From assembly GCA_028711165.1 (NCBI GenBank), contig JAQTST010000001.1, forward strand, positions 149,872-213,871: a DNA stretch of 64,000 nt, in the 5' to 3' direction. Below are positions 1,277 to 47,764 of the stretch, one piece after another (position 1 is the first letter of the stretch; each line of letters begins with the position of its first letter). The DNA is from Candidatus Nanoarchaeia archaeon (GTDB lineage Archaea; Nanobdellota; Nanobdellia; Pacearchaeales; GW2011-AR1). The position numbers were made by a program, and so were the translations under genes. Under the pieces are notes generated by a model. That model had not been told where the DNA came from. It saw only the letters and a program-made list of their open reading frames with translations, and did no database searches.

Positions 1277-1453
1277 ATGGAAGAACAACCACAAATCAAA
1301 AATCGGGGGATGATAAAAGAAGTATGGGATTTTTTAAAAGTAAGAAAAAAATGGTGGTTGTTGCCAATAATTATTCTTCTCGTTTTGACAGGAGCTTTGG
1401 TATTCTTTAGCCAGGCAAGTTCAGTGTCTCCTTTTATTTATGCTTTGGGTTAA
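1277..1453 (+). CDS. DUF5989-like small membrane protein (58 aa, below ORF-track cutoff)
   Basis: ATG 1277, TAA 1451-1453. Translation MEEQPQIKNRGMIKEVWDFLKVRKKWWLLPIIILLVLTGALVFFSQASSVSPFIYALG. The RKKWWLLPII...PFIY pattern matches the small proteins usually encoded next to carbamoyltransferase genes. Confidence 0.55.
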   Translation: MEEQPQIKNRGMIKEVWDFLKVRKKWWLLPIIILLVLTGALVFFSQASSVSPFIYALG

Positions 1454-2253
1454 TGTTCCTTATATCTTCCTCTTTTTTCCACGGCTTTTAATCTCTCGAG
1501 AACTTTTTGTGATTCTTTATAATTTTTGTAACCTTCAATAACTTCTCTGAAAAGTATCTCCCAATTTTTGAAATGCTTTGCTTCCATCGCCTGTTTTAAC
1601 AAATGCAAATCAACTGCTTTGTCTTCAATTTTTCTCGAAATATAACCGAGGCCGAAGTCTATGAAGAAAATAATTGGCTCGCTATCGCTCGCGATTGATT
1701 GCTTCGCGCCAGACTTTGTCAAGGCGCTTCGCTGAGATTTTGTTAATCCGGATAAATCTTTGTCGCAGGGTTCAATTATTGGAATATTTTCCTTTTTAAC
1801 TTTAGATTTATCAACTAAAATCATATTGCTCGTCGTCAAATCTCCGTGAATTATATCTGCGTCGTGAAGCTTTGCAATTTCCTGTCCAATTATTTTACAG
1901 ATTTCTTTTTGTTTTTCTAATGGGAAAGAATCGAGATGCTCTGAGAGTTTTTCCCCTTCGATGAAAGGCATTATTATTCTTTCTTGCAACTTCGCTCGTT
2001 CATCCCGCCCTCCCTCCCGATGCGGAATTAATTTGTACTCGCGAAGTTGTTCTTCATTTAATGGTTTCGGAGCATTGATTATTTTTGAAGCTTTTTCAAG
2101 GAGTTTTTTTTCTGCTTTTGTTCTCTGTTTTCGGATTTTGTCGTCGAGTTCTTTTATTCTGTAAGACTTGGAAATTCTATCTTTAATAATCAAGTTATCT
2201 TTCAATTCAATAACTGCTTCTGCCCCTCTGGCAAGGATTAATTGATTTTTCAT
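1450..2253 (-). CDS. bud32: Bud32/RIO-type serine/threonine kinase (KEOPS subunit) carrying two extra segments
   Basis: Motifs LARGAEAVI, HGDLTTSNMIL and IDFGLG, with a C-terminal helical tail. Two segments are extra relative to the compact Bud32 fold: repeat A1 at 1988-2048 and a ~45-aa insert between HGDLTTSN and DFG. Confidence 0.8.
   Translation of the reverse strand: MKNQLILARGAEAVIELKDNLIIKDRISKSYRIKELDDKIRKQRTKAEKKLLEKASKIINAPKPLNEEQLREYKLIPHREGGRDERAKLQERIIMPFIEGEKLSEHLDSFPLEKQKEICKIIGQEIAKLHDADIIHGDLTTSNMILVDKSKVKKENIPIIEPCDKDLSGLTKSQRSALTKSGAKQSIASDSEPIIFFIDFGLGYISRKIEDKAVDLHLLKQAMEAKHFKNWEILFREVIEGYKNYKESQKVLERLKAVEKRGRYKEH
1988..2048 (+). repeat. family A hairpin/C-tract element, copy A1 (inside bud32 CDS)
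   Basis: AACTTCGC...GCGAAGTT 8-bp terminal inverted repeat. The core CCCGCCCTCCCTCCC (2004-2018) has four C3 runs with 1-nt spacers. Aligns with copies at 5394, 33273 and 47519. Confidence 0.8.
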
Positions 2254-5393: not shown

Positions 5394-5454
5394 AATTTCG
5401 CTCGTCAATCCCGCCCTCCCCGTCCAGAGGGAATTAATTAGTACTCGCGAAATT
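5394..5454 (+). repeat. family A hairpin/C-tract element, copy A2
   Basis: AATTTCGC...GCGAAATT terminal inverted repeat, inner TCCC/GGGA stem, core CCCGCCCTCCCC. 61 bp, the same length as A1. Confidence 0.8.
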
Positions 5455-5506
5455 GGAAATTTATAGAAAAATGAGCCAAATGAGAGTTAATAAATTTGTG
5501 GTTTGA

Positions 5507-14136: not shown

Positions 14137-15981
14137 ATGCTAAAAAGAGAGGGAAATCGCAGAGCTCAAGTTACAATTTTTATCATTATTGCAATAATTA
14201 TTGTTGCAGGAGTGGCAATTTTTTTGGCTGTCAGAGGAGGAATAAGCATTGTGCAGATTCCTGCAAACATCCAGCCGGTTTACAACACATTTTTGTCATG
14301 CCTGGAAGATAAAACAAAAACCGGAATTGATTTATTAGAAAGTCAGGCAGGCTACATTGAACTTCCTGAATTCGAACCTGGTTCTGTTTACATGCCTTTT
14401 TCATCGCAGTTAAATTTTTTGGGAAATCCAATTCCTTACTGGTATTATGTTTCTGCAAATAATCTGCAAAAAGAACAAATGCCTTCAGAACAGGATATGG
14501 AAAAATCTCTGGAGAGTTTTATCGACGACAGAATAAGAGAATGCGACTTTTCAAGTTATTATCAGGAAGGATTTGAAATTGTCCAGAAAACACCGACTGC
14601 AAATGTTGATATAAGAAGCAGCGACGTCAATGTCAGATTAAATATGAATATGGAAATTACAAAAGGGGAAGATACTGCTCTTGTAACCAGCCACGAGACA
14701 ACTGTCAAATCTAATCTTGGAGCTCTCTACAACTCGGCAAAAACTCTTTATCAGAAAGAACAGAAAGAATTATTTTTAGAAGATTACGCGATTGACAATG
14801 TAAGGTTATACGCTCCTGTCGACGGAGTTGAAATAAGCTGCAGTCCTAAAACCTGGAACACCAACGAAATTTTCAGCAATCTTCAGGATGCCATCGAGAC
14901 AAATACTCTTGCACTTACTACCACGACACCGACGACAAATGACGGAAGATATTTTTATGTCAGTGCAGGAATTGGCACAAATGCGAGATTTATCAATTCA
15001 AAAAGCTGGGCTTACAGCATTGAAGTTCTTCCGTCGCAGAACAGCTTGCTGATTGCAAATCCTGTCGGAAACCAGCAGGGACTTGGAATTTTAGGATTCT
15101 GTTATGTTCCTTATCATTTTGTTTACAATGTTAAATATCCTGTTTTAGTGCAGGTTTACAACGGAGATGAAATTTTCCAGTTTCCCGTCGCTGTTCTAGT
15201 TCAGGGAAACAAACCAAGAGAGCCATTAACAGCAAATGCAGAGACAATTACTCCTGAATTATGTCCATACAAAAACACCGAAGTGACTGTGAGAACTTAT
15301 GATACTGCACTTAATCCTATCAACTCTTTAGTTTCTTACGAATGCTTCAGTGAGAGCTGTGCTATCGGCAATACAGTTTCAGGAATCCTTACAGCAGATT
15401 TCCCGCAATGCAGCAACGGTTACATAACTGCAAGAGCTGACGGATATCAAGAAACAAGAACTTTATTCTCGACGATTCAGGAAGGAAGCGCTACAATCGT
15501 AATGAACAAACTTTATGATTTGAATGTCGCATTAAAATTAGGCGGGAATAATTATGACGGAAAAGCGTTCATTTATTTTGTCTCCGACGATAATTCAAAA
15601 ACAATTTCTTATCCTGAACAGAAAAAGGTTAAACTTTCCGAAGGAACTTATGATGTTTCAGTTTACATTTATCGTGATTCTTCATTACAGCTTCAGGAAA
15701 CAACTACTCAGGAATGCGTTGATGTTCCAAGTTCAGGAATCGGGGGAATCTTTGGAATCACAGAGAAAAATTGCTTTGATGTGAAGATTCCGTCGCAGTT
15801 AGTTACAAATGTTCTTGCGGGGGGAGGAAAGCAGGAATATAACGCAGTTGAAAGCCAGTTAAGCGGTTCGAATACTATCGAGATAAATGCACAGCAGTTC
15901 ACAACACCTACGACAATTGAACAGCTTCAGAATAATTACCTTTCATTTGACAATTCAGGATTGGACATTACATTAAGATGA
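14137..15981 (+). CDS. large secreted/membrane-anchored hypothetical protein (614 aa), partner of the giant ORF
   Basis: N-terminus KREGNRRAQVTIFIIIAIIIVAGVAIFLAV, which resembles a class III (pilin-like) signal/anchor. Stop overlaps the start of the 2340-aa ORF (ATGA at 15978-15981). TATA-like ATTTATATA about 25 nt upstream. Confidence 0.7.
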   Translation: MLKREGNRRAQVTIFIIIAIIIVAGVAIFLAVRGGISIVQIPANIQPVYNTFLSCLEDKTKTGIDLLESQAGYIELPEFEPGSVYMPFSSQLNFLGNPIPYWYYVSANNLQKEQMPSEQDMEKSLESFIDDRIRECDFSSYYQEGFEIVQKTPTANVDIRSSDVNVRLNMNMEITKGEDTALVTSHETTVKSNLGALYNSAKTLYQKEQKELFLEDYAIDNVRLYAPVDGVEISCSPKTWNTNEIFSNLQDAIETNTLALTTTTPTTNDGRYFYVSAGIGTNARFINSKSWAYSIEVLPSQNSLLIANPVGNQQGLGILGFCYVPYHFVYNVKYPVLVQVYNGDEIFQFPVAVLVQGNKPREPLTANAETITPELCPYKNTEVTVRTYDTALNPINSLVSYECFSESCAIGNTVSGILTADFPQCSNGYITARADGYQETRTLFSTIQEGSATIVMNKLYDLNVALKLGGNNYDGKAFIYFVSDDNSKTISYPEQKKVKLSEGTYDVSVYIYRDSSLQLQETTTQECVDVPSSGIGGIFGITEKNCFDVKIPSQLVTNVLAGGGKQEYNAVESQLSGSNTIEINAQQFTTPTTIEQLQNNYLSFDNSGLDITLR

Positions 15982-18900
15982 CAAGAAAAAAAATAATCTT
16001 CGGAATGTTTTTCGTATTTGTAATTTTATTTCTCCAGTTCATTTCTGCTGACATAATCTCGAATGTCCAGACTTCACAATTTAATCTCGACACAAAAAAA
16101 TCTCTCGACACTTCGCTTTGCCAGGAAGGAAAAGATTTCCTTGTGCAGATTTCTCCGTCGGGATGTGAACCTGCAGTTGTAAGAACTGATTTGCTTGAAG
16201 AAGAAGATGTTCAGGTGTACTGCAAGCTTGGAGCAACACAAATAAATCCTCTGATAGACGTCCAGACAATTGACAGCATTTCATTTTCAGGAACTTACCC
16301 GAAAGAAGTTTCTTCAATAGGATTTCATCCTGCAAAAGCAGCACTCGGTGTAAAGGGAGACTTGAATTCCCCTGTCCTGAATAATATCGGATATGTTGTA
16401 ATCAATTTAAAAAAACAGGCAAATGCTTCTGCAATTCCTGAATTCGTCGAGGGAAAACTGACAGCAAAAATAAAATACAATGTAAAAAGTGCTCTTGGAA
16501 TTGGGAATGCACAGATTTATGTTTCTGACTTGGACAATGCAGACTGGGAAGCAAGAAGATATCAATATAATTTCTGGAACGGAAAAGGAACTTTGAAATC
16601 CGACGGGATAGGAACTGACAATGCGCAGATTTCTGTCTATTCTAATGAAAAGAAAATTTCAAGTGTCAGCCTCAAGAAAGGAGAAACTTCGAGCATGATT
16701 TATCTTCCCGGACTTGAATGTCAGGCAGGAACAAAATTAAAATTGGACGGATTGGAGAGTCCCAACACGCGAGCAATAATAAGAGTAAACGCAGAAGTTG
16801 CTGAGATTGCCGAGGGAGAAAAATTCCTTGACAATAAATGTTCTGTGAAAAATCTTGAATACAGGGGGATTAATCAGCATGTTGATATAAGATGCATTGA
16901 AGACGGCAAGACAAGTGAATTTGGTTTGTCTATAAATCCTAAAATAACTTTAAAACTTGCAGGAAAAGATTTGGGTGTGATAACCAATATTCCCGGAGCT
17001 TATGAAGAAGCAACGAGAGATTACAGCGTCGGTGATTGGTTGTATGACACGACTTATCTTGGCAATCCCGGAAGTGTTTATCTCGCATACATCGGAACAG
17101 ACAGAGATTCAAAAAATGTTGATGATTTGTTTATCTATCTTACTTTCTCACTTTTGAAAAAAGAAAAGCTCAGCGAAGAGGAGATTAGCACTGCAAGTGC
17201 TCTTATTGGAGATTTAAAAGAAGCCGGACAAACTTCTACAGGATACATTGATATTACCAGCGATGCAATAAGCAGATTTGCAGGATTGCTAAACGGAATC
17301 GGGAGAGCAATTGAAAAAGGAGAATATTACTGGAGATTAAACTTTGGAGAAAATCATCAGGTTCCTGAAATTAGCGGGCCGACGATTTCAATAGTTAATT
17401 TAGCAGGAGCAACTGACGCTGAATTAACCGGAAATGCAAAGGAATATTATGACGGTGCAAAAGCAGATTATGAAACTATAAGGGAGAGCTACTCGTCGGA
17501 AACTTACACAAAAGACGAGACTTCAACTTTTGGCGAAGAGGCTTTTTACAACGAGATACTTTTAGCCTGGAATGCAAACCAGAAAAAATTTGCTTATGAT
17601 TTATGCCAGGAGTACATTCAGGCTTATCCTAATTCCAAGAAAGATTTGAGCTACTGCACTGATGCAATAAAACTTGCAAACCAGGATGCTCAGGAAGTTT
17701 ATGTAACAATCAACGGGGAAATAAAAACAATTTCCTTCGACGGAATCAACGAGCCGACTTTCGAGGATTTTGGTGCAACTGTGAGAATAAACGCTCCTGA
17801 CGGAACAGTAAGAAGTTTTGATTTGAAAAAAAATACAATTGTTTATCTCGACAAGAATCAGGAAATTTATGCTGTTCATCCTATAATCGGGGGCGTTGTT
17901 TATTTCAAATATTCCAACGGATGGAGCTGGTCTTATGACAAAGTAACCTGGGTGATTTCTCCTGATGCAAATTCTGCTACTCAGTTAATTAATCAGCTGA
18001 AAGGAAAAACTCTCGACGATGGGAAAACAACTCTGATAAATCAGGGGGCGGTAAAAGAGACTATGGTTATCAATGATTACCTTCAGCTGAATTCTCTCGA
18101 CGATAATTCTGCAACCATAAGGACCAATCTCAACGTTTATGGACTTTCAGAAACAATTGCAAAAGAATTTTCCGGGGGAATAATTACACTCCAGAAAGAT
18201 GTTCCTAAAGATTTGGGGACAGGATATGTCTTTACTTTGACTGATATAAATCTTAAGAAAGTTGCGAAAGTTTCTGTTTTGCCGAATATAAACAACGCAG
18301 GAACAACTGCTGATTTCAGTTTCAAAATTGGAATTGAAAAAAGGGCAATTAATCTTCCTCCTGAACAAGTCAGAAATTTAATCACGACGCTGAACAAGAC
18401 AATAAATGATTGGGAAGGAATTTCATCTACTCTCGGGGGTGTTACACAAGGACTGCAGACAGGATGCCTTGCAGCGGGAGCAGCACTTGTAGCAAAGAAT
18501 TTTTTATTCGGGGTTGGCGGAGAAGGAATTGCAAGACAAACAATAATGAGAGGAAGCAATGGCTGGACAGAAAGATGTGCACAACTTGTAGCGCAGGGAA
18601 CTTATAATTCGCAGGACCAGTGTTACCTTTCAAATGCTGACAAAATTGACAAGGATGTCGTCGCTGTTTCCGGAATTATTGAACAGCAGAATAGCAAGAT
18701 AAAACAAATTGAATCGGGGATAACTCAGGCACAATTTTTGACTGAGAGCATTGTAAACACAACTGCATTTATGGAAAAATACACTCCTCAGGTTAGAAGC
18801 TGTTTAGGAAATCAGAATTATGCAGACCCGAGCGGAAAGGGGACAGCAATCACTACTGACGACTTGAATGCAATCTCCTACGAGAACTGGAAAGTCAAGC

Positions 18901-21900
18901 AATATTTTAACAAGGAACAGCTGAGAGATATTGAATTATACTGCAATATTTTAAAATCACCGACGGCAAGTGCTGAATTAAAGCAAATTGCAAACCAGAG
19001 AATTTATTCTGAGCTGACTGATGTCAAAACAAATGTCGGGAATCTTGTTGAGATAGTAAATCTCGCCAGCCGTTTTGGAGTATCATCCAGCGATATAACT
19101 TTTATAGAAACCGGACAGAATGTCAGAAAGTTCAAATATGAAGGATTGACAAACGGGAACAGAATTCCTACTGAAAATTCAAATGCGCCAATTGCAATAA
19201 TTTCTGCTTCTGACGGCGGGAAATATATTTTACTGCTCGACGATTCTGCAGGAACACAGCAGCTTCCTGTTTTAGGCGCTTACAGCATTATCGACGGTTC
19301 GAAATATTCTGAAATTCCTTCGGAGCTGAAAAATATTTATTTCCAGAGATTCGACGCGACGACTTACCAGAACGAATACAAGAATGCCCAGCTGAGATAT
19401 TACGAGACTGAACCTTACAAAGGGCTTCCTGCAATTGTCCCTTTTGATTTAAAGAACGGCTGGTATGCAGCGACGAGACAGACACTTCCTACCGGGGGAA
19501 GCATTCAGCCTTACGACGCTTCTGCACGTCCAAATAGTTTTTACCTTTGCAACGTCGGAGAAAACGGGCTGGAAGAATTCCAGACTATCGGTGATGATAC
19601 CTGCGAGATGATTAATCTTGGAACAGGAATGTCTTACGACCAATTCCCTGGTTTAGATGAGAGAGATGCGAAGACTCAGATTGACAAGGCTGTGCAGGCA
19701 ATAACTCAGGCGTCTAAACTTTACAGAGCAGGACTCTCGGGGAAAGTTAATATTTTAGGAAACAGCGTCAGTGTTGGAAGTCCTGCTGCGGATATTCCGC
19801 AATTCCAGTGCCAGGATTTCATGTCTCCAAATGAATGTTTGGTATTGTTCAATTTATGCGACCCTGTGATTTGTCCGTCGAGCAGATGTGATTTGGGCGG
19901 CGCTTATCCTGTCAAAGATGTTGTGCAGACAGGAGTAATCGGAAGTTTGGTTTTGTGTCTGCCTAATGTTCAGGAAGGAATTATTTTCCCTGTATGCCTT
20001 ACAGGAGTAAAAGCAGGAATCGACGGATTTTTGTCAATAACAAAATCTTACAGAGATTGTCTTCAGGAAAGTCTGAGAACAGGAAAAGTTGTTGGAGTCT
20101 GCGACGAGATTTACAGTCTTTACATTTGCGATTTCTTCTGGAGACAGGCACTTCCTCTTACTGACATCGCAATTCCAAAAATCGTTGAGTTTTTATCAGG
20201 ACAAGGAACAAGAGGCGGAGGAGAATATGCAAGTGTTCAAAACTCATGGAACTCTGCAGAAAGTGCGATAAGTTTTTTCACTAATTATTACGGGGCAAAT
20301 GCCAAGGATGCATTTTTAGCGAGGACAACAGAAACTGTGAAGAGCGAAGTTTGCAAGTCATACACTTCGGCAGTTGTTCCTTCAGGAGCTGATTTCATAA
20401 ATCAGATAACAACTCCTGCTTCACCTGTTCAGTTTACTGCGAGATTTGACGAGATTCCTTTGACAACAGCGACGGTACCGCCAACATCACATTACAAAGT
20501 TTTCTATCACATTTTTGCAGGAAAAGATTCAGGAGCATATTATCAGGTTTATCTTAAAGGAACTGCCGGCAGTTCATATTATCAGGATGCTTCGCAGAAT
20601 TTAGCAATTGCTTCTGGCTACATCAGCGTCGGTGGTTATGCAACTGAAACAAAAGATTTGACAGCTGTTGCAGGATATAATCAGTTGTGCGTGAATGTCA
20701 ACGGGCAGGAAGAATGCGGATTCAAGGAAGTCTCGACGGACTTTGCGATTAATTATCTCAAGGATGAATATCTTGCAAGCCAGGCAACTGAGACAGACAT
20801 CACGACTGAGGCTGGGTGTATTTCGGGAAGCGCGAGTGTTTACAGCATTTTGACAAATCCTAATGTCCAGCAAGGTGCAGAGGAAACAATTAATCCTGAA
20901 ATTTACAACAGAGGAATTACAAGAATCTGCGCGACAGACAATCCTGGAATAGGAACAGATACTTCTCCTTATGTTGCGACGAAAATAACCGGCGGAATGA
21001 TAACTGGAAAAGTTACAGATACAGAAACTGACGGAAATATCCCTACAGACGACAGCACTCCAACACCTGAACCCACTCCAACCCCTACAGAAACAACAAA
21101 TGATGAAGAACCACCAACCACAATCGAGGAAGACAAAAAAATAATTGAGGAATTGACAAAAGAGCCAGGAGTAAAGAACGGGCCGAGGTGGGTTGCAGTT
21201 GGTTATTGTGATAATGAAAAAATAAAATGTTGGCTTGATACAGAAAGTGTCAAGGATGTAATTAAGACGACGACAATTGAAGGCGAGGCATTACAGGATG
21301 TCCAGAAAAATTATATGGATGTTCTGAGAAATGAGGGGAATTATCTCAGCGAGAAAGAGTTTTCATCTTCTGTCCAGGAAATAGAAAAGGAGAAAAATTC
21401 TGCTAAAAAAATAACTATCATTGACAACATTTTTGACAGAACATTCTGGAGCACTGAAAAAGTTCAGCTGATATTTTTGAGAGGAAATGCTTACATGGAA
21501 TTGCTTAAACTTTTAATCGGGACACAGCCAAAACCAGAAACAACGACGACAACTGCAAGCACAGAGCTTTCTAATATCACTGACGCAAGGCAGAGAGTTT
21601 TAGTTGCTGCTGAAAAATTAACCGGCGCGATTGTAACAATTCCGAGAAGCGGATTCCTTGTCTGCGGTGCTGCTGCTTTGAAAATTTATTCTTATGCACA
21701 GGTTTCATACAAATGCGTTTACGGAGATAAAGAAGCAAGTTATTTAGTATACCAACAATATTTCAACAAAGACAGTAAAGTAATAGTTAATGTCCCCGGC
21801 AAATTTTCTCCTTATGCCGGATGTCCTCTGAAACCAATATCCCAGAAATTTGACAACATCAAGCCAGGAGATTATCTTGTAAGAATCTGGGACAGCAAAT

Positions 21901-23000
21901 ATAATCACGGAGTTATTTTCCTTGGGTGGGAAGACAAGGGCAAAAGAATTGCAAGATTATTTGACTGGAATGGCGATTACTTGAAAGAAGGAGAGAAAGA
22001 TTCTCAAGGGAAGATATGCACAAGAGAAAACTTTTTCCGAGCTGATACCTGCACTGGCGGAGGAAATAATTACTGCACTTATAACGGAAATTATTTCTGC
22101 AAGACTTACTGGACTTACACAAGTGATTTAACCGACGCTGCCGGACAGCCAGTTTATATGGTTCATAGCCCTGACACTTCGGGGATAGACATTACAACTA
22201 CAGAAATTGGAAAAGATATTTCTCCTGCTCCTCCTACGGAATTTACAAGCGGATATTCTCCTGCACAACCCACAAAAACAACTGTCGGAGACAAAATTTA
22301 TTCTGAGGCTGCGAAACTTTTGGGAAGCAGTTATGTTTCTTCTGCTGAATTTGTAAGCCGTTCACTAATAAATGCAGGAGTCAGTTCTCTCGGCATTCGT
22401 TCATTTGAAGAATTGATTCATGGATTTGAAACTCCCGCAAATAATTTTATGGAAATTGATCCTGATTACATGAAGGCTGGAGATATAATTGTTCTTGGAA
22501 AAGAATGTCTGCCTGAAAATTCTATCGGCATTTTTGCTGACTGGGATTTGAGCACAAAACAAGCTGTATTTTACACTCAGGAAAAAGGACTTTTTGACGA
22601 CGGTAAAGTTGTTCAGAAAAGAGAATCTGTGTCAAACATTTTAACGCTTAATAATAATGTATATGTTTCGAGAGCTTACAGATATATTGGAAATTTAACT
22701 GCAGAAGAAAAATCTGCAATAATTCCTTCAAGGGCAACATGGATAATATTAAGTGCACTTAACAAAATTTCCCCTCCTTACTCCGGGGCAGGAAATCCCC
22801 TTACAGGAAATTACGACGAGAACAAGCAGTTTATTGATGAACTTATTATCGACGGGCTTTTGACAGAACAGGAATGCAAAGATGTCAGAGGCAATCAAAT
22901 CTTTGGAGCAAATATGGGACAGAAGGATATTAACTGGGTTAAGAATATCTTGGTAGGAAAACAATCAGGAATGCAGGCAGAAAGTATTGGTGCTGATTAA
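15978..23000 (+). CDS. giant secreted protein (2340 aa) with Cys-rich/hydrophobic core, Pro/Thr linker and two C-terminal papain-fold-like (NlpC/P60- or CHAP-like) modules
   Basis: Uninterrupted 7 kb ORF with a signal-like segment IIFGMFFVFVILFLQFISA. Cys-rich block FQCQDFMSPNECLVLFNLCDPVICPSSRCD... at about 19800-20200. PT linker at about 21040-21125. Module 1 (about 21575-21990) has FLVCGAAAL ... NHGVIFLGW. Module 2 (about 22283-22560) has SSAEFVSRSL ... GDIIVLG ... SIGIFAD. Confidence 0.85.
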   Translation: MTRKKIIFGMFFVFVILFLQFISADIISNVQTSQFNLDTKKSLDTSLCQEGKDFLVQISPSGCEPAVVRTDLLEEEDVQVYCKLGATQINPLIDVQTIDSISFSGTYPKEVSSIGFHPAKAALGVKGDLNSPVLNNIGYVVINLKKQANASAIPEFVEGKLTAKIKYNVKSALGIGNAQIYVSDLDNADWEARRYQYNFWNGKGTLKSDGIGTDNAQISVYSNEKKISSVSLKKGETSSMIYLPGLECQAGTKLKLDGLESPNTRAIIRVNAEVAEIAEGEKFLDNKCSVKNLEYRGINQHVDIRCIEDGKTSEFGLSINPKITLKLAGKDLGVITNIPGAYEEATRDYSVGDWLYDTTYLGNPGSVYLAYIGTDRDSKNVDDLFIYLTFSLLKKEKLSEEEISTASALIGDLKEAGQTSTGYIDITSDAISRFAGLLNGIGRAIEKGEYYWRLNFGENHQVPEISGPTISIVNLAGATDAELTGNAKEYYDGAKADYETIRESYSSETYTKDETSTFGEEAFYNEILLAWNANQKKFAYDLCQEYIQAYPNSKKDLSYCTDAIKLANQDAQEVYVTINGEIKTISFDGINEPTFEDFGATVRINAPDGTVRSFDLKKNTIVYLDKNQEIYAVHPIIGGVVYFKYSNGWSWSYDKVTWVISPDANSATQLINQLKGKTLDDGKTTLINQGAVKETMVINDYLQLNSLDDNSATIRTNLNVYGLSETIAKEFSGGIITLQKDVPKDLGTGYVFTLTDINLKKVAKVSVLPNINNAGTTADFSFKIGIEKRAINLPPEQVRNLITTLNKTINDWEGISSTLGGVTQGLQTGCLAAGAALVAKNFLFGVGGEGIARQTIMRGSNGWTERCAQLVAQGTYNSQDQCYLSNADKIDKDVVAVSGIIEQQNSKIKQIESGITQAQFLTESIVNTTAFMEKYTPQVRSCLGNQNYADPSGKGTAITTDDLNAISYENWKVKQYFNKEQLRDIELYCNILKSPTASAELKQIANQRIYSELTDVKTNVGNLVEIVNLASRFGVSSSDITFIETGQNVRKFKYEGLTNGNRIPTENSNAPIAIISASDGGKYILLLDDSAGTQQLPVLGAYSIIDGSKYSEIPSELKNIYFQRFDATTYQNEYKNAQLRYYETEPYKGLPAIVPFDLKNGWYAATRQTLPTGGSIQPYDASARPNSFYLCNVGENGLEEFQTIGDDTCEMINLGTGMSYDQFPGLDERDAKTQIDKAVQAITQASKLYRAGLSGKVNILGNSVSVGSPAADIPQFQCQDFMSPNECLVLFNLCDPVICPSSRCDLGGAYPVKDVVQTGVIGSLVLCLPNVQEGIIFPVCLTGVKAGIDGFLSITKSYRDCLQESLRTGKVVGVCDEIYSLYICDFFWRQALPLTDIAIPKIVEFLSGQGTRGGGEYASVQNSWNSAESAISFFTNYYGANAKDAFLARTTETVKSEVCKSYTSAVVPSGADFINQITTPASPVQFTARFDEIPLTTATVPPTSHYKVFYHIFAGKDSGAYYQVYLKGTAGSSYYQDASQNLAIASGYISVGGYATETKDLTAVAGYNQLCVNVNGQEECGFKEVSTDFAINYLKDEYLASQATETDITTEAGCISGSASVYSILTNPNVQQGAEETINPEIYNRGITRICATDNPGIGTDTSPYVATKITGGMITGKVTDTETDGNIPTDDSTPTPEPTPTPTETTNDEEPPTTIEEDKKIIEELTKEPGVKNGPRWVAVGYCDNEKIKCWLDTESVKDVIKTTTIEGEALQDVQKNYMDVLRNEGNYLSEKEFSSSVQEIEKEKNSAKKITIIDNIFDRTFWSTEKVQLIFLRGNAYMELLKLLIGTQPKPETTTTTASTELSNITDARQRVLVAAEKLTGAIVTIPRSGFLVCGAAALKIYSYAQVSYKCVYGDKEASYLVYQQYFNKDSKVIVNVPGKFSPYAGCPLKPISQKFDNIKPGDYLVRIWDSKYNHGVIFLGWEDKGKRIARLFDWNGDYLKEGEKDSQGKICTRENFFRADTCTGGGNNYCTYNGNYFCKTYWTYTSDLTDAAGQPVYMVHSPDTSGIDITTTEIGKDISPAPPTEFTSGYSPAQPTKTTVGDKIYSEAAKLLGSSYVSSAEFVSRSLINAGVSSLGIRSFEELIHGFETPANNFMEIDPDYMKAGDIIVLGKECLPENSIGIFADWDLSTKQAVFYTQEKGLFDDGKVVQKRESVSNILTLNNNVYVSRAYRYIGNLTAEEKSAIIPSRATWIILSALNKISPPYSGAGNPLTGNYDENKQFIDELIIDGLLTEQECKDVRGNQIFGANMGQKDINWVKNILVGKQSGMQAESIGAD

Positions 23001-23737: not shown

Positions 23738-23786
23738 TTTCCATTAAGATAAGAATTTATAAATGTTTTTAGAAATGCGGAGTATA

Positions 23787-23865
23787 ACTCGCGACCTCGC
23801 TCATTTATCACTGATCCTCCCTTCGCGAAATCGCTCGGGATTTGCACCTCGGTTCAAATTAAGTT
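23787..23865 (-). mobile_element. family B miniature insert 3' of tRNA-Leu, flanked by a 14-bp duplication of the tRNA 3' end
   Basis: AAATGCGGAGTATA at 23773-23786 and 23866-23879 (exact). The insert, read in tRNA sense, is AACTTAATTTGAACCGAGGTGCAAATCCCGAGCGATTTCGCGAAGGGAGG...AATGAGCGAGGTCGCGAGT. It aligns with the inserts at 27928, 29199, 33443 and 50857. Confidence 0.6.
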
Positions 23866-23868
23866 AAA

Positions 23869-23952: not shown

Positions 23953-23953
23953 T

Positions 23954-24016
23954 TGTAAGACACCTTATCGGTTTCTTGACACTCAATTTCCCTTTGCAAT
24001 ACTGCTCAGGGCTGAT
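23954..24016 (-). repeat. family C leader module, copy C1 (between promoter and tRNA-Leu)
   Basis: TGTAAGACACCTTATCGGTTTCTTGACACTCAATTTCCCTTTGCAATACTGCTCAGGGCTGAT is nearly identical to 26582-26643. Similarity continues into the TATA region. Confidence 0.75.
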
Positions 24017-24031
24017 TCTTTCAAATAACCT

Positions 24032-26581: not shown

Positions 26582-26643
26582 TGTAAGACACCTATCGGTT
26601 TCTTGACACTCAACTTCCCTTTACAATACTGCTCAGGGCTGAT
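26582..26643 (-). repeat. family C leader module, copy C2 (5' of rps8e)
   Basis: TGTAAGACACCTATCGGTTTCTTGACACTCAACTTCCCTTTACAATACTGCTCAGGGCTGAT. Differs from C1 by a few substitutions and a 1-nt indel in a hairpin loop. Confidence 0.75.
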
Positions 26644-26654
26644 ACTCAATAATA

Positions 26655-27022: not shown

Positions 27023-27916
27023 ATGATTAAAATAACTTTTCTGGGGACTTCTGATGCTATTCCGAGCGCGGAAAGAAATCATACTTCTATTTTATTGAAT
27101 TACAAAGATGAGAATATCCTCGTCGATTGCGGGGAAGGGACGCAGAGACAATTCAGAAAGGCGAAATTAAATCCGAACAAAATTACGAGAATATTAATCA
27201 CACACTGGCACGGGGACCATGTCCTCGGGATTCCTGGGATTTTGCAGACATTAAGTTTCAGCGAATACAAAAAAACGCTTTACATTTACGGGCCAAAAGG
27301 AACAAAAGAATTCATGAGAAATCTTCTTAACACTTTCGTGTTCCATAAAAATTTTAAAATTGACGTTGAAGAAGTAGACGGCAAATTTTTTGAGACAAAT
27401 GATTTTTATCTTGAGTCTGAAAATATGAGCCATGGAATTCCATGCAATGCTTACACTTTTGTTAAAAAAGGAAATCTGCGAATTGACAAAAAGAAACTTG
27501 CGAAGATAAAAATTCACGGACCGATTTTGAAAAAACTGAAAGAAGGAAAAGACATTGTTTACGACGGGAAAAAATATTTGGCTAAGAATTTAACGTACAA
27601 AGAAATTGGGAAAAAAGTTTCTTTTGTATTCGATACCTCGTTTAATGACCGGATTGTTCCATTTGTGAAAGATTCTGATTTGCTTGTCTGCGAGTCGACT
27701 TTTGGCGTGGAACTTGAAGACAAGGCAGATGAGTTTAAGCATTTGACTTCGAAACAAACTGCAGAAATTGCGAAGAAGTCTAAATCCAAAAAACTTGTTC
27801 TTACTCACATCAGCCAGAGATACAACAAAAACCCCAAGAAAATTTTAGACGCTGCGAAGAAGGTTTTCAAGAATTCTGTTTTGGTTAAGGATTTGGACGA
27901 GATTGAAATTAAGTAA
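27023..27916 (+). CDS. rnz: ribonuclease Z (tRNA 3' endonuclease)
   Basis: Metallo-beta-lactamase motif ITHWHGDH; KITFLGTS N-terminus. Its stop codon lies inside the 22-bp direct repeat at 27906-27927. Confidence 0.9.
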   Translation: MIKITFLGTSDAIPSAERNHTSILLNYKDENILVDCGEGTQRQFRKAKLNPNKITRILITHWHGDHVLGIPGILQTLSFSEYKKTLYIYGPKGTKEFMRNLLNTFVFHKNFKIDVEEVDGKFFETNDFYLESENMSHGIPCNAYTFVKKGNLRIDKKKLAKIKIHGPILKKLKEGKDIVYDGKKYLAKNLTYKEIGKKVSFVFDTSFNDRIVPFVKDSDLLVCESTFGVELEDKADEFKHLTSKQTAEIAKKSKSKKLVLTHISQRYNKNPKKILDAAKKVFKNSVLVKDLDEIEIK

Positions 27917-27927
27917 CGCCCCGGACA

Positions 27928-28005
27928 ACTCGAGCCCTCACTCGTTGCTTTAAATTTTTTCTCGCACTCGTGAAAACTCTCTGGATTTGCACCTCGGTTC
28001 AAATC
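27928..28005 (-). mobile_element. family B miniature insert between rnz and tRNA-Arg(UCU), flanked by a 22-bp duplication
   Basis: AAATTAAGTAACGCCCCGGACA at 27906-27927 and 28006-28027 (exact, 100 bp apart). The insert in tRNA sense is GATTTGAACCGAGGTGCAAATCCAGAGAGTTTTCACGAGTGCGAG...AACGAGTGAGGGCTCGAGT. Confidence 0.6.
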
Positions 28006-28016
28006 AAATTAAGTAA

Positions 28017-29102: not shown

Positions 29103-29197
29103 GCGCGGGTGGCACAGCGGCTACTGCGTCTCCCTGCAGATTATAAATTAAATAATCGGAAAGGAGATTTTCACGGGTTCGAGTCCCGTCCCGCGCT
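29103..29197 (+). tRNA. tRNA-Cys(GCA) with a 22-nt intron at 37/38
   Basis: Acceptor GCGCGGG/CCCGCGC+T. Anticodon stem TCTCC...GGAGA with loop CTGCAG|A. Intron about 29140-29161 (ATTATAAATTAAATAATCGGAA). T arm ACGGG-TTCGAGT-CCCGT. Confidence 0.85.
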
Positions 29198-33258: not shown

Positions 33259-33272
33259 TTTTCTAGTTTTTT

Positions 33273-33329
33273 ATTTTGCTCAGTATCCCGCCCCCCACCC
33301 CAATGGAAGTTAATTAGTCTTCACAAAAT
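33273..33329 (+). repeat. family A hairpin/C-tract element, copy A3 (degenerate)
   Basis: ATTTTGCTCAGTATCCCGCCCCCCACCCCAATGGAAGTTAATTAGTCTTCACAAAAT. Aligns along its full length with A4. C runs of 3, 6 and 4. Confidence 0.7.
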
Positions 33330-33341
33330 AAAAATTAATTC

Positions 33342-33442
33342 ATGGCTCTGGTCCTCGCTTCGCTGCGGGCGAGCCATCTCAATCCTTCAATGGCTCTGGG
33401 CTAAAATTTAGGAAAAATTTTGCCACATAGCCTATGGCTCTG
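33342..33442 (-). repeat. three extra copies of the tRNA-Met 3' terminal nonamer, each preceded (tRNA sense) by a 5-bp hairpin
   Basis: ATGGCTCTG at 33342-33350, 33390-33398 and 33434-33442, plus 33543-33551 in the tRNA itself. Hairpins in tRNA sense are CTCGC-(10 nt)-GCGAG, GGCTA-(24 nt)-TAGCC and GGGAG-GTCAGCA-CTCCC. Confidence 0.7.
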
Positions 33443-33542
33443 GGGAGTGCTGACCTCCCTAACTCGCGACCTCCCTCATTCAACACTGACCCTACTTTCG
33501 TGAAATCGCTCGCCTCTGCCTACATCAAAGCTTGTTTAATTT
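33443..33542 (-). mobile_element. family B miniature insert 3' of tRNA-Met/Ile(CAU)
   Basis: Between nonamer copies at 33434-33442 and 33543-33551. Contains CGAGCGATTTCACGAAAGTAGGGTCAGTG...AATGAGGGAGGTCGCGAGTT (tRNA sense), colinear with the Leu copy. Confidence 0.6.
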
Positions 33543-33543
33543 A

Positions 33544-33615
33544 TGGCTCTGAAGAGAATTTAACTCTCGACCTCTGCCTTATGAGAGCAGCGCTCTAACA
33601 CTGAGCTACAGAGCC
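33544..33615 (-). tRNA. tRNA with CAU anticodon (elongator Met or Ile2)
   Basis: Acceptor GGCTCTG/CAGAGCC+A (G1-C72, so not an initiator). Anticodon arm CTGCT-CTCATAA-GGCAG. T arm GAGAG-TTAAATT-CTCTT. Confidence 0.85.
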
Positions 33616-35054: not shown

Positions 35055-35210
35055 ATGGATTCCCTTTTAGATATTCTTTTGGACTTTGTTTTGCGTATGT
35101 CTATAATAAGGGGGAGCAAAAAATGGGAATTTTTTTGGGGTTCACTGTTATTAATTATTATATTGGCAATTGTATTCTTTATCATTCTTAAAATCTTTAA
35201 AATTGTCTAA
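35055..35210 (+). CDS. possible small membrane protein (51 aa)
   Basis: MDSLLDILLDFVLRMSIIRGSKKWEFFWGSLLLIIILAIVFFIILKIFKIV. Support is weak. Confidence 0.25.
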   Translation: MDSLLDILLDFVLRMSIIRGSKKWEFFWGSLLLIIILAIVFFIILKIFKIV

Positions 35211-35725
35211 GGCTTAATCCATCTTACTTCATAATAACTTATGTCGCCTTCTTCATCGACGATTGCGAGAAGCAGATTCTTTTTTGTTGAATGGGCTACT
35301 CTGTTTTTTGCTGAAAATTCATGCCATGTAAATCTTTTTGATTCATGTTCAGCGAAGACAATCCACTTTGCATGCGATACACCCGGCTTACTTCCTTTGG
35401 CGTAAACTCTAAAATCCGCGCCGAATTTCAGTGCAGTTTTAACTACATAACCTCTTTCTCTCAAATCCTTGAACACCAAATATTTTATCTGAATCTTTTT
35501 GTCAACTCTTCTGCATTTTTCTATAAATTCTTTTTTTGAAAGTTTCTTGTCTCTGGAAAATATATCAATTTTTCCTTTTTCCAAAAGAAATAATGCTTCT
35601 GTCAGGGAATATTGTATCTTGTCATCTTTGGGTTCCCCGAAATGACTTTTCTCGTAAAGAGAGAACGCGTCTGCGTCGATGCTTGAAATTATTTCTCCCA
35701 TAATATATGCTTTTATTTTTTCCAT
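35207..35725 (-). CDS. endA: tRNA-splicing endonuclease EndA
   Basis: Catalytic domain pattern RGYVVKTALKFGADFRVYAKG...HAKWIV. Confidence 0.9.
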   Translation of the reverse strand: MEKIKAYIMGEIISSIDADAFSLYEKSHFGEPKDDKIQYSLTEALFLLEKGKIDIFSRDKKLSKKEFIEKCRRVDKKIQIKYLVFKDLRERGYVVKTALKFGADFRVYAKGSKPGVSHAKWIVFAEHESKRFTWHEFSAKNRVAHSTKKNLLLAIVDEEGDISYYEVRWIKP

Positions 35726-41811: not shown

Positions 41812-42198
41812 TCAAGCTCCTTCAATTGCTTTCAATTTATCCTGAATGCTCATTAATTCATTTTCGAGTTTTTCATCAAAATCCTTTTTTATTGCCGGCG
41901 GAGATATCTTTTTTATTTCTCCGACTGCTGTCCTTTCAGGAATCTTAAAAAATGGAAAATAATTTTTTGTTTTTTTCAGGGCAGCGTTGAGTTCTCTTAT
42001 TGTCTGATATATTTTGCTTCTTATCTCGAACTCTTCTGCCCGAAGAGAATTATATTTCCTTGCTATTTTTATTATGTTAAGAAAAGACATTTCAGAAGAA
42101 AGCAAATCTTTTTTTGCATCAACAGATTCGTAATAACCCAACCTGAAATAAACCGGATTATTATTTTCTACCTTCGGAAGACTTTTTTTAGTTTTCAT
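41812..42198 (-). CDS. hypothetical protein, translationally coupled to 42195-42878
   Basis: 4-nt overlap with the upstream ORF; helical protein. Confidence 0.5.
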   Translation of the reverse strand: MKTKKSLPKVENNNPVYFRLGYYESVDAKKDLLSSEMSFLNIIKIARKYNSLRAEEFEIRSKIYQTIRELNAALKKTKNYFPFFKIPERTAVGEIKKISPPAIKKDFDEKLENELMSIQDKLKAIEGA

Positions 42199-42878
42199 TC
42201 TACCTGCGAGAAAATGTTGCTATCTATTTTTTCAATTTTTTCTTTAATCTGTTTAATCTCACTTTCCCATAACGCTAATTCTTGCTCTTCTTTTTCTCTG
42301 ACTTTTTTTACATCTTCAACCATATTTTCTATTTCTGAAATTTTTCTTCTTACTTCTTCAAAAGTTCTTGAACCCTCTTCAAATTTATCTATTCGGATAA
42401 AAATTGGCTCCTGACCTCTACTCGAGCTCCCACTCATTGCATTAAATTTTTCCGGCATTCGTGAAAACTCTCGCTCATTGCTATCAAATCTTTTTCTGGC
42501 ATTCGCGAAATCACTCGGTTCTGCTTCTCTTGTTCTTGTCCTCTGCAATGGAGCGGAAAAATCTCTTTTTGTTCCTTCTATTCTAAGAGGTCTCTGCATC
42601 ATCGGCAGTTCTTCTGAAAATACCTCTGCTTCAACCCCGACCCCTTTCTTCCCAGCAATTGCTTCTTTGATTGTATCCTGTGAGAATTTATTTCCTAAAC
42701 TTCCATTCGGAAAGCTTGGTAATTGCGGAAGCTGTTCAGGCATCTCTGGCATTTCTTTTACAAAATCTTTTTCTCCTATTCCGGGAAATTCCGGCAATTG
42801 CGGAAGCTGTGGAATTTCAGGAAGTTTTGGAATGTCTGAATTCTCCCCTTTTTTTTCTTTTTTCTTAAATAAAGCCAT
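42195..42878 (-). CDS. hypothetical protein with LP-rich N-terminus and C-terminal coiled coil
   Basis: IPKLPEIPQLPQLPEFPG repeats; C-terminal EPIFIRIDKFEEG...coiled coil. Contains two copies of the family-B core motif (42454-42480 and 42498-42523). Confidence 0.55.
   Translation of the reverse strand: MALFKKKEKKGENSDIPKLPEIPQLPQLPEFPGIGEKDFVKEMPEMPEQLPQLPSFPNGSLGNKFSQDTIKEAIAGKKGVGVEAEVFSEELPMMQRPLRIEGTKRDFSAPLQRTRTREAEPSDFANARKRFDSNEREFSRMPEKFNAMSGSSSRGQEPIFIRIDKFEEGSRTFEEVRRKISEIENMVEDVKKVREKEEQELALWESEIKQIKEKIEKIDSNIFSQVE
42454..42523 (+). repeat. two copies of the family-B core motif inside a CDS
   Basis: GGCATTCGTGAAAACTCTCGCTC and GGCATTCGCGAAATCACTCGGTT, 44 bp apart, so the host ORF reads them in different frames. 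Confidence 0.55.
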
Positions 42879-47520: not shown

Positions 47521-47582
47521 ATTTTTGCTCATTATCCCGCCCACCCGCTCGAATGGGAAATAATTAGTATTCGCAAAAATTC
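47519..47582 (+). repeat. family A hairpin/C-tract element, copy A4
   Basis: GAATTTTTGC...GCAAAAATTC 10-bp terminal inverted repeat starting inside the stop codon of the DHH gene. Inner TCCC/GGGA stem, core CCCGCCCACCC, followed by a T-rich tract. Confidence 0.8.
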
Positions 47583-47764
47583 TTCTTTTGAAAGTATAGA
47601 AATTTATTTAAACTTCAACTACCTCTGTTTTTCATGCAAATGGCTAAAATGTTTAGAACATGTAATTGTTCCATTATTTTAGCTGTGGCTTCAATCCTTT
47701 AAATCATCAAGAATTCTTTTGGTTCTTGAACAGATTTGAGGGCTTAGAGAATTCTAAAAAATAT

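Follow-up and report, generated by a model that had tools for sequence, protein, structure and literature searches.

A strand-specific hairpin repeat of a Pacearchaeota-like (DPANN) archaeon, probably a small non-autonomous palindromic insertion element

Several kinds of small palindromic repeats have been described in prokaryotic genomes. Prokaryotic MITEs, including those of Sulfolobus and haloarchaea, are small, non-autonomous, multi-copy elements with terminal inverted repeats (TIRs), which lie in AT context and show insertion polymorphism. Repeats of the ERIC/IRU, Correia/NEMIS and BOX/RUP types are co-transcribed with adjoining genes, fold in RNA and can alter mRNA stability or processing; Correia elements carry a TA duplication and sites for IHF and RNase III. 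REP/REPIN elements (RAYT, Y1/HUH) and the palindrome-associated elements derived from IS200/IS605 are short, imperfect and non-autonomous palindromes, and the head of a REP is defined by a conserved GTAG/CGTC (PMC3733652). Rickettsia palindromic elements (RPEs) are palindromic non-coding repeats with no known transposase that lie both between genes and in frame within them; they are found in frame within unrelated housekeeping genes unusually often, are read through, and add a peptide at a tolerant surface region of the protein (PMC10969869).

The repeat described here, family A, was found in a 64-kb window (the whole stretch of DNA that was analysed) from a Pacearchaeota-like archaeon of a landfill metagenome, and by comparison appears to be closest in behaviour to the RPEs and REPs. 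It shares with the RPEs its palindromic, non-coding and multi-copy nature, the lack of a known transposase, and an occurrence both between genes and, in frame and stop-free, inside genes whose homologues lack it. The likeness is one of behaviour: family A is 61-66 bp long across the read copies and archaeal (DPANN), whereas RPEs are ~100-150 bp long and bacterial; its coding copies share no single conserved peptide, and the element has a G-tract core and a tandem G.A in the stem. The resemblance to REP/REPIN and IS200/IS605-type elements lies in compensatory stem variation with a fixed short word, mismatches that tell the two strands apart, no target duplication and a locally uniform orientation. 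However, family A lacks the conserved GTAG/CGTC head (CGTC is present only in copy A2, GCTCGTCAAT, and GTAG in none), it is also intragenic, the copy number seen is low (at least 8, against tens to hundreds), and its family-B relatives would not fold as DNA. Unlike the IS200/IS605-type ends (PATE), with their distinct left and right sub-terminal hairpins, it forms one whole-length hairpin, and the fixed 4-5-nt target that makes up the IS200/IS605-type left flank has no consistent counterpart beside its copies. Neither a RAYT nor a TnpA gene was found among the scanned ORFs of the window. The features of MITEs listed above recur in family A, but classical MITEs differ from it in their target-site duplication and in conserved TIR sequences, whereas the 'TIRs' of family A covary and its best-conserved parts are internal; we know of no parent IS with ends matching it. 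Transcribed bacterial hairpin repeats, such as ERIC/IRU, would fit the sense bias of family A and the leader positions of copies A2 and A3, but the ERIC/IRU, Correia/NEMIS and BOX/RUP repeats are at least 100-150 bp long and bacterial.

The sequence-only reading had proposed a hairpin-forming repeat family with four copies of ~60 bp in a single orientation, and the family, with copies of ~61 nt, proved to be real by alignment, by the count of its core and by a covariance model. The copies, A1 (1988-2048), A2 (5394-5454), A3 (33272-33330) and A4 (47519-47584), all run along the plus strand as written, with the hairpin on the minus strand, and scored 84.1, 81.7, 78.8 and 84.9 bits, respectively, with the model built from family A copies (79-85 bits, E ~1e-19 to 1e-20), while the best match elsewhere in the 64-kb window reached about 16 bits (maximum 16.5). 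The core ATCCCGCCC has four exact occurrences in the window, each within a family A copy and on the plus strand only, and is separated from TAATT by 18 nt in every copy. Three independent Logan assemblies, as well as an NCBI MAG, contain the sequence at even depth, and thus family A is not an assembly artefact. Pairwise identity among the copies is just 62-82%, A3 and A4 representing diverged subtypes (AT-richer in A3, with a 10-bp outer stem in A4), and the copy number seen is low, therefore no recent burst has occurred. The uniform orientation of four copies is weak evidence alone and becomes informative only with family B added. The GC skew of the window is confounded by gene orientation and does not allow the leading and lagging strands to be assigned.

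On the minus strand, which is the G-rich one, every copy folds into a hairpin with an outer stem of 8-10 bp that shows compensatory changes, followed by an invariant tandem G.A/A.G and two covarying base pairs. In A2, all on the minus strand, the 5' arm of the outer stem (AAUUUCGC, 5447-5454) pairs with the 3' arm (GCGAAAUU, 5394-5401); the invariant GA at 5445-5446 lies opposite the invariant GA at 5402-5403, which gives the tandem G.A/A.G, and the GU at 5443-5444 pairs with the AC at 5404-5405, a position occupied by GU/AC, AU/AU or AG/CU in different copies. The near-invariant segment AC(U/A)AAUUA (5435-5442) contains the stop codon UAA in intergenic copies, the first UAA being AAA in the coding copy A1. 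The G-tract block GGGGAGGGCGGGAU (5408-5421) pairs in more than one register with a pyrimidine run (5426-5433), and its final nine bases (GGGCGGGAU) do not vary among the five sequenced copies. Compensatory double changes were found at 8 of the 12 outer-helix pairs (the two inner pairs counted in), and 93% of the alignment cells are paired, a value reached by none of 500 shuffles and compared with 34-51% in slid controls. RNAalifold returned an outer helix identical to the one based on covariation. The predicted RNA folding energy ranges from -17.8 to -25.3 kcal/mol for the G-rich strand and from -6.5 to -19.2 kcal/mol for the C-rich strand, and wobble pairs are G.U on the minus strand only; in the outer stem of A3, for example, a minus-strand G.U pair corresponds to a C.A mismatch on the plus strand. 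Selection has maintained the folding of the G-rich strand into a single hairpin, together with the internal words AC.AAUUA and GGGCGGGAU.

Three of the copies lie at gene boundaries, as had been noted from the sequence. A2 is located in the 5' leader of srp54, between a promoter-like block and the ATG (5378), from which it is separated by 15 nt. The block (AAACCACAAATTTATTAACTCTCATTTGGCTCAT, 5471-5504, minus strand) is conserved in the syntenic relative L037 and may be read as the BRE/TATA promoter of srp54 (TTTATTAA at 5487-5494), which would place a putative transcript start ~10 nt before A2. Both this block and the start of srp54 are present in L037, where unrelated sequence separates them, and many related contigs in landfill runs have no element at the srp54 site. 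An exact search for the SRP54 product that begins at the ATG (5378) returned no record. A3 comes directly after a tRNA-Met / CAGAGCCAT repeat array and ends 14-15 nt before the ATG (33258) of a VanZ-like gene. A4 overlaps the stop codon TGA (47518-47520) of a DHH/DHHA1 gene on the plus strand (46483-47520), taking its G and A into the stem, and is the only copy outside the sense direction of any adjoining transcription unit. It is positioned at the stop codon and not within the gene, and truncation of the DHH C-terminus was rejected, the homologues being 344-346 aa long and the product here 345 aa. The syntenic relative L039 runs from the DHH stop directly into the conserved downstream block.

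The fourth copy, A1, is not at a gene boundary, which the earlier reading had overlooked: it is in frame within ORF 1450-2253 (minus strand), encoding a Bud32/Kae1-associated kinase. With an extra C-G pair (1987-2049), it constitutes a stop-free insertion of 63 nt, encoding QLREYKLIPHREGGRDERAKL, in the loop that joins helix 34-58 to strand 92-96. All 18 aligned Bud32 homologues (59-82% identity) lack the insert, and the contig of a relative from the same metagenome is 60 nt shorter exactly at this site, where it reads PFPLEEFNK. In the Bud32 frame, the intergenic copies have UAA and UGA at the positions where A1 has AAA and GAA. AlphaFold predicted the insert as helix-loop-helix (pLDDT ~74-79), the rest of the kinase fold being confident, and in this model A1 extends a surface loop of Bud32 by a helical hairpin of 21 residues. 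An exhaustive HMMER search with the 38-residue insert region gave no match at E <= 0.001, a query too short for this result to carry weight, and the concatenated element-encoded peptides had no scoring match among 5.8 billion proteins. Another coding copy was found in the Nanoarchaeota MAG DAHXOU01 (L002, 2286-2346), in frame within a 366-aa methyltransferase, whose orthologue in the window genome (63% identical) carries another, shorter sequence at the insertion point. Thus, in-frame positions within proteins account for two of the six read copies; being a multiple of three in length and stop-free, these two are read through, and since their reading frames differ along part of the element, no single peptide is conserved. 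The protein alignments also contain many other G/R/S-rich insertions of 15-45 residues, which differ between close Pacearchaeota.

Four further contigs were found to carry family A copies with different flanks, at a depth equal to that of the window genome in all three runs, so the copy number in this genome is at least 8, as counted by a method that picks up near-identical copies only. The strict element pattern gave one true extra copy, that of DAHXOU01, and one chance match among 185,579 species genomes, and no match in JGI metagenomes. The 32 matches of a looser pattern in IMG/VR were all unrelated when inspected, and the 25 matches of a family B 18-mer in JGI metagenomes were all chance ones in GC-rich bacteria. 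In a scan of the window against Rfam 15, only tRNAs reached the threshold, and the elements had no match, not even when short stretches were scanned with E up to 10.

Family A is probably a small palindromic insertion element, non-coding and non-autonomous, that belongs to a single narrow lineage of Pacearchaeota-like (DPANN) archaea. Of the three roles suggested in the sequence-only reading, that of a REP/MITE-like selfish element fits best, given the insertion polymorphism at four sites (A1, the methyltransferase copy, A2 and A4), where the closest relatives have no element; these comparisons rest on relatives of 63-87% protein identity, and therefore do not fix the exact boundaries of the insertions. 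The sites themselves are unrelated: 5' leaders, a gene end, and in-frame positions in two housekeeping proteins. The suggested transcript-end signal found no support, as there is no U-tract after the element on the G-rich strand, one copy is coding and two are in 5' leaders. A Pfam scan of ~46 ORFs of the window revealed no transposase or integrase, which is consistent with a non-autonomous element. No convincing target-site duplication or conserved flanking target was seen by eye in the five fully read copies: the flanks of A1 share only a weak AAGAA, and a purine-rich AAATGAAG-like flank is present beside only 3 of ~9 copies. With neither a target duplication nor a nearby transposase, we can only infer how the element moves. 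An enzyme with its gene elsewhere in the genome might recognise the single-stranded form of family A and copy it from one strand, with the mismatch-bearing foot of the hairpin and the invariant words as the recognition features. REPs and the ends of IS200/IS605 are handled in this way by HUH/Y1 transposases, without target duplication. The G tracts would then be part of a conserved recognition or pairing segment and not a conserved quadruplex, and copies in leaders may secondarily influence their mRNAs.

The relation between family A and a second hairpin family, B, which had been suspected earlier, was supported by a common hairpin foot and common words (UUUCGCGA, GAGCGA and GGG-N-GGGCG). Family-B hairpins, all on the minus strand, lie in the 3' trailers of tRNA-Leu (23790-23835), tRNA-Arg (27934-27977) and tRNA-Met (33468-33507), and two tandem foot hairpins of this type (42426-42512) are in frame within ORF 42195-42878 (minus strand). 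The tRNA-Arg hairpin has the same foot with a different loop, namely an 8-bp stem with three G.U pairs, then GA/GA, then GU/AC. The tRNA 3' ends adjoined by family B are duplicated. Over both families, the foot hairpins are oriented in sense with local transcription in 11 of 12 cases (two-sided binomial p ~0.006), a bias that leaves room for an RNA-level role. In some family-B stems G.U pairs are so numerous that folding is possible as RNA and not as DNA, and these stems suit such a role better than that of a DNA hairpin substrate.

A rather unlikely explanation, which draws on these properties, is that family A is a structured RNA module used by the host, the hairpin of the G-rich strand (its foot plus the invariant AC.AAUUA and GGGCGGGAU) being a site at which transcripts are bound or processed, for example one that stabilises mRNAs or binds a protein in leaders and tRNA trailers. 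Such a module would have spread through duplication or insertion and been retained by selection, the coding copies being accidents. The persistence of compensatory changes at such low identity, the G.U pairs confined to one strand, the strong strand asymmetry of RNA folding energy, the RNA-only folding of family-B feet, the sense bias and the distance of 14-15 nt between the end of both A2 and A3 and the start codon all agree with this, and the pairing and internal words kept in old copies could equally reflect host selection for an RNA function. However, the four testable positions all lack conservation in relatives, the two of six read copies that lie within proteins are unlikely to have a regulatory role, Rfam gave no match, lax thresholds included, and direct reading revealed no K-turn bulge, C/D boxes or bulge-helix-bulge.

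It is also conceivable, but improbable, that families A and B form a superfamily of strand-specific Pacearchaeota hairpin elements whose spread is linked to the transcript or the non-template strand and does not involve a classical transposase. An RNA-mediated or transcription-coupled spread may be proposed because the landing is almost exclusively sense, because the sites are mRNA leaders, in-frame positions in proteins and places after duplicated tRNA 3' ends, and because the G.U-rich stems exist as RNA only. If true, this would mean a new mode of mobility for small elements in archaea with very small genomes, and a steady supply of new protein loops.

A G-quadruplex or i-motif core had been put forward as the defining feature of family A, and the C/G tracts of A1-A4 were described correctly. 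Every G3-N(1-3)-G3-N(1-3)-G3 cluster on either strand of the 35%-GC window falls in the four copies, and the sole canonical four-tract motif of the window is that of A1 (GGGAGGGAGGGCGGG). G4Hunter maxima were 1.1-2.0, GGGCGGG is invariant, and under the ViennaRNA G4 model both A1 and the L002 copy change over to a quadruplex of three layers with the outer stem as its cap. Nevertheless, it is very unlikely that family A is a quadruplex (RNA or minus-strand DNA) or i-motif regulator in which the tracts are the functional core and the arms merely present them. The canonical definition, (G3+N1-7)x4, applies only to A1 and the L002 copy (GGGGCGGGAGGGCGGG), two of the five sequenced copies; A2, A3 and A4 have three G3 runs, so a four-tract quadruplex is not a property of the family, and the conserved G-tract core, GGG-N-GGGCGGGAU, likewise consists of three tracts. 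An intramolecular quadruplex was predicted for neither A2 nor A4, and only a two-layer one for A3. Both of the competent copies are inside coding regions, where a stable RNA quadruplex would be a burden and not a signal, the hairpin itself provides the G tracts with a conserved pyrimidine partner (UUCCC), and the positions of the elements are not conserved among relatives.

That a sequence-specific protein uses family A as a DNA site, such as an ORB-like Orc1/Cdc6 site or a recombinase attachment site, is hardly credible: the minus strand (TTCC..(N).GG, then a G-string) loosely resembles the dyad and G-string of archaeal ORB elements, and family B lies beside duplicated tRNA 3' ends, as integrase attachment sites do, but the variable part of the element is the very one that would form the dyad, the copies are dispersed at distances of 3-28 kb, some within coding sequence, and not clustered at an AT-rich unwinding region or at orc1/cdc6 (no such gene was found among the scanned ORFs of the window), and the covariation of the stem indicates a folded single strand and not a duplex site. 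An archaeal origin recognition box was rejected on the same variable dyad, dispersed copies and lack of orc1/cdc6 among these ORFs. Box C/D sRNAs have a C box (RUGAUGA), a D box (CUGA) and a 3-nt bulge adjoining the tandem G.A; in family A the symmetric 2x2 loop that holds the tandem G.A has no bulge, A3 is the only copy with box-like words, and Rfam sR16 scored 9.8 bits against a gathering threshold of 70, so a box C/D sRNA or K-turn was rejected. A bulge-helix-bulge intron, with two 3-nt bulges on opposite strands and a 4-bp helix between them, was rejected given the continuous border stem of 8-10 bp and the reading frame kept in all coding copies; a Shine-Dalgarno mimic, given that GGAGG occurs in only 3 of 5 copies and ~35 nt from start codons; and an intrinsic terminator, given the missing U-tract after the element on the G-rich strand. 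A split-tRNA leader was also considered and rejected.

No description of small selfish palindromic elements of this sort in DPANN archaea was found in the open-access literature. The recognition of family A is of use in annotation, as it guards against reading the G-tracts as regulatory quadruplexes and accounts for unusual insertions in conserved proteins. The genomes of DPANN archaea are tiny and streamlined, and selfish repeats of small size that persist in them and are tolerated in essential genes (Bud32/KEOPS, the methyltransferase and the srp54 leader) would supply lineage-specific insertions to proteins, as well as leader and trailer hairpins. Given the many varying insertions of 15-45 residues in Pacearchaeota, a few families of such elements might be behind much of the 'extra' sequence of their proteins.

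Family A, a hairpin repeat of about 61 nt, is present in four copies in the window, located and with tract counts as the sequence-only reading had described. There are exactly four occurrences of the nine-base core ATCCCGCCC, all on the plus strand and within family-A copies, each followed by TAATT at a constant distance of 18 nt. A covariance model derived from the copies gives these four 79-85 bits, and the top other match in the 64 kb, both strands included, 16.5 bits. All clusters of three closely spaced G3 runs in the window fall within family-A copies, and the single canonical four-tract quadruplex motif is A1. Contrary to its earlier description, A1 (1988-2048, minus strand) lies inside the ORF of a Bud32/Kae1-associated kinase (1450-2253, minus strand). 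A2 (5394-5454, minus) has ftsY and a small ORF on one side and srp54 on the other, these genes all being minus-strand, and ends 15 nt 5' of the srp54 ATG. A3 (33272-33330, minus) directly follows tRNA-Met, 14-15 nt 5' of the start of a VanZ-like gene, and A4 (47519-47584, minus) overlaps the TGA of a plus-strand DHH/DHHA1 gene. The family is real and of modest interest, a new example of a type of element already known.

The five fully sequenced copies, four from the window and one from the MAG DAHXOU01, align readily when read on the G-rich minus strand. From the outside inward, the hairpin begins with an outer stem (8-10 bp); next, two invariant GA dinucleotides face each other and make a tandem G.A/A.G within a symmetric 2x2 loop, and two more base pairs follow (GU/AC, AU/AU or AG/CU, depending on the copy). 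The inner part comprises, in order, a near-invariant AC(U/A)AAUUA, a pyrimidine run (UUCCC...), a variable apex and GGG-N-GGGCGGGAU, of which GGGCGGGAU is invariant across the five copies. In the outer helix 93% of the cells are paired and both-sided changes occur at 8 of 12 pairs; none of 500 shuffles equalled this, sliding the partner strand by 1-3 columns reduced pairing to 34-51%, and RNAalifold recovered the same helix. The hairpin is strand-asymmetric: the sole wobble pair in family A is G.U on the minus strand and C.A if read on the plus strand, and the RNA folding energy is -17.8 to -25.3 kcal/mol for the G-rich strand versus -6.5 to -19.2 kcal/mol for the C-rich one. With DNA parameters, both strands fold nearly equally. 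The copies demonstrate selection for a one-strand hairpin and two internal words.

At all four independent sites that could be compared, the element is absent from the relative. Eighteen Bud32 homologues (59-82% identity) read ...NAP.PFPLKEFNKIEMPF... at the A1 site, where the window reads ...NAPKPLNEE-QLREYKLIPHREGGRDERAKL-QERIIMPF..., and a related contig of the same metagenome is 60 nt shorter exactly at this point and encodes PFPLEEFNK. The 63 nt of A1 contain no stop in the Bud32 frame, carrying AAA and GAA where intergenic copies have UAA and UGA. In the AlphaFold model, with the kinase confidently modelled, the insert forms a helix-loop-helix (residues 67-90, pLDDT about 74-79) between a long helix (34-58) and a strand (92-96). 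The copy on contig DAHXOU010000024 of DAHXOU01 (2286-2346) lies in frame within a 366-aa methyltransferase, whose orthologue in the window's genome, on contig L036 (12324-13430, 63% identical), carries a shorter and dissimilar linker at that site. At A2, the syntenic contig L037 has the upstream block AAACCACAAATTTATTAACTC..TTTGGCTCAT and the srp54 start, with unrelated sequence between them, and many related contigs of the landfill runs skip A2; the block may be the BRE/TATA promoter of srp54, which would put the transcript start about 10 nt before A2. At A4, the DHH stop of the syntenic contig L039 leads directly into the conserved downstream region, and DHH homologues are equally long (344-346 aa), so A4 lies at the end of the gene, not inside it. 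Family A shows repeated, lineage-specific insertion of a structured palindrome, and the copies within genes are read through.

Other short inserts were seen in the same proteins. A second insert in Bud32, disordered and about 40 residues long (window ~1680-1806, residues ~150-192), is common to only some homologues, and other homologues carry inserts rich in G/R/S as well as N-terminal extensions in which certain words recur (SRAGGRELA.EVAS). The methyltransferase orthologues (L036 12324-13430 and L002, the DAHXOU01 contig, 1611-2711) differ by three indels of 15-20 residues each. Short inserts specific to a lineage seem to be frequent in these proteins. Downstream of A4, a non-coding block (47662-47760) is about 92% identical to L039 2688-2785, with 1-nt and 3-nt indels, and is more conserved than the adjacent DHH gene (83% at the protein level). 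It holds a long hairpin (CCUUUAAAUC..GAUUUGAGGG) and may be a small RNA or a leader, although Rfam has no match to it.

The window (35% GC) is archaeal DNA and encodes intron-bearing tRNAs, TFB, TFE, the tRNA-splicing endonuclease EndA, ribosomal proteins S3Ae/S8e/L44e and many aminoacyl-tRNA synthetases; the nearest group to its proteins is Candidatus Pacearchaeota. Two tRNA genes (29103-29197 and 50715-50855, plus), one of them 141 nt long, were seen by Rfam and missed by ARAGORN, presumably because of introns; the tRNA-splicing endonuclease gene is at 35207-35725 (minus). An ORF of 2340 residues (15978-23000, plus) and the 616-residue ORF before it have no Pfam match. Sequence matching the window was found in the NCBI MAG GCA_028714745.1 (contig JAQTLT010000001.1) and in three landfill-metagenome runs.

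Among 185,579 species-representative genomes, the strict family-A pattern found a copy only in DAHXOU01; it had no matches in JGI metagenomes, and a looser pattern gave chance matches only in IMG/VR. Comparison of landfill contigs with A1 and A2 revealed four more contigs that carry copies with different flanks, and since their depth equals that of the window's genome in all three runs, this genome has at least eight copies. Near-identical relatives of A3 and A4 were absent from the landfill contigs. The copies read are 62-82% identical, and the DAHXOU01 copy resembles A1 and A2 as closely as they resemble each other. Three copies including A1 (landfill contigs aligned to window 1980-2056) have a similar purine-rich stretch (AAATGAAG..) immediately before the 5' side of the G-rich hairpin, and A1 and one unlinked copy have a few bases in common past both stem ends (GAAC.. 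/ ..GCAA); these shared flanks could mean that certain targets are preferred or that the element is slightly longer.

The suspected kinship with family B was borne out: family-B hairpins are the next-best matches of the family-A model and have the words UUUCGCGA and GAGCGA and, in some copies, GGG-N-GGGCG in common with family A. A scan for the shared foot (a stem closing in YRC, then GA, 2 bp, loop, 2 bp, GA and G) returned members of the two families only, with zero noise: six in the window, one further hit within the 9.6 kb that lie past it, the DAHXOU01 copy, and one hit in the relative L037; A3 and two tRNA-linked family-B copies fall narrowly outside the pattern. Family-B elements of about 85 nt lie directly 3' of tRNA-Leu (23770-23868), tRNA-Arg (27900-28015) and tRNA-Met (33340-33545), all on the minus strand, and behind each the 3' end of the tRNA recurs as a direct repeat (ATACTCCGCATTT, TGTCCGGGGCGTTACTTAATTT and CAGAGCCAT, respectively). 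After tRNA-Met, CAGAGCCAT is present in four copies along with short palindromic fillers, and the arrangement has the look of insertions made repeatedly at the ends of tRNAs or of miniature att-site remnants. Two tandem hairpins of family-B type (42426-42512, minus) are in frame within the ORF 42195-42878, and another (ENA contig L065, 500-585, plus) is in frame in Bud32 of another Pacearchaeote, in the same loop as A1; this loop is thus a repeatedly used, tolerant site. Family-B stems contain up to four G.U pairs and therefore fold as RNA, not DNA. At 11 of 12 independent sites, the foot hairpin is oriented in sense with the local transcription unit, the exception being A4. Families A and B would thus make up a superfamily of one-strand hairpins that are nearly always in sense orientation. 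A separate cassette of about 55 nt (..GCAAAGGGAARTTGAGTGTCAAGAAACCGATAAGGTGTCTTACA; window 23953-24019 and 26593-26646, L037 7370-7415, L036 15700-15760 on the minus strand) lies immediately 5' of tRNA-Leu and the S8e gene and, in a relative, 5' of the srp54 ATG. The cassette, in which no TATA box is obvious, could be a portable module, either promoter or leader.

Among the readings proposed from sequence alone, that of a selfish element is the best supported, and family A is probably a non-autonomous insertion element resembling RPEs (Rickettsia palindromic elements) or REPs. RPEs, which insert in frame into housekeeping genes (PMC10969869), are the nearest known system in behaviour; family A, also in frame in housekeeping genes, is half the size, archaeal and devoid of a single conserved peptide. 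Rfam holds no family that it fits. It shows no target duplication, as a classical MITE would, and is neither extragenic nor provided with the GTAG/CGTC head of REPs (PMC3733652); the defining features of box C/D or K-turn RNAs, bulge-helix-bulge introns and origin boxes are likewise lacking. In the open-access literature, MITEs are described for Sulfolobus, haloarchaea and a few other archaea, and no such elements were found for DPANN lineages.

Movement might be performed by a HUH/Y1 single-strand transposase, given the likeness to REP/RAYT and IS200/IS605 substrates in the mismatch-bearing hairpin, lack of target duplication, non-autonomy and locally uniform orientation. None of the copies has an evident direct repeat at its flanks, and among the approximately 46 window ORFs scanned no transposase, integrase or reverse transcriptase, and no HUH/Y1 enzyme, was seen. 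This route in particular merits only about a quarter of the confidence placed in the insertion element. A transcript-level role or transcription-coupled insertion fits the sense-strand bias and the G.U-rich relatives at least as well. The main rival, an RNA hairpin used by the host, is unlikely. A G-quadruplex, emphasised earlier, is a quite improbable reading of the family: four G3 tracts exist only in A1 and the DAHXOU01 copy, the only two whose fold was changed by the ViennaRNA quadruplex model, under which A3 gets a two-layer quadruplex and A2 and A4 remain hairpins. Because what the copies keep is three tracts, closing with GGGCGGGAU and matched by a pyrimidine partner within the hairpin, a quadruplex is possible for single copies and does not describe family A. 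A protein site in duplex DNA is scarcely credible.
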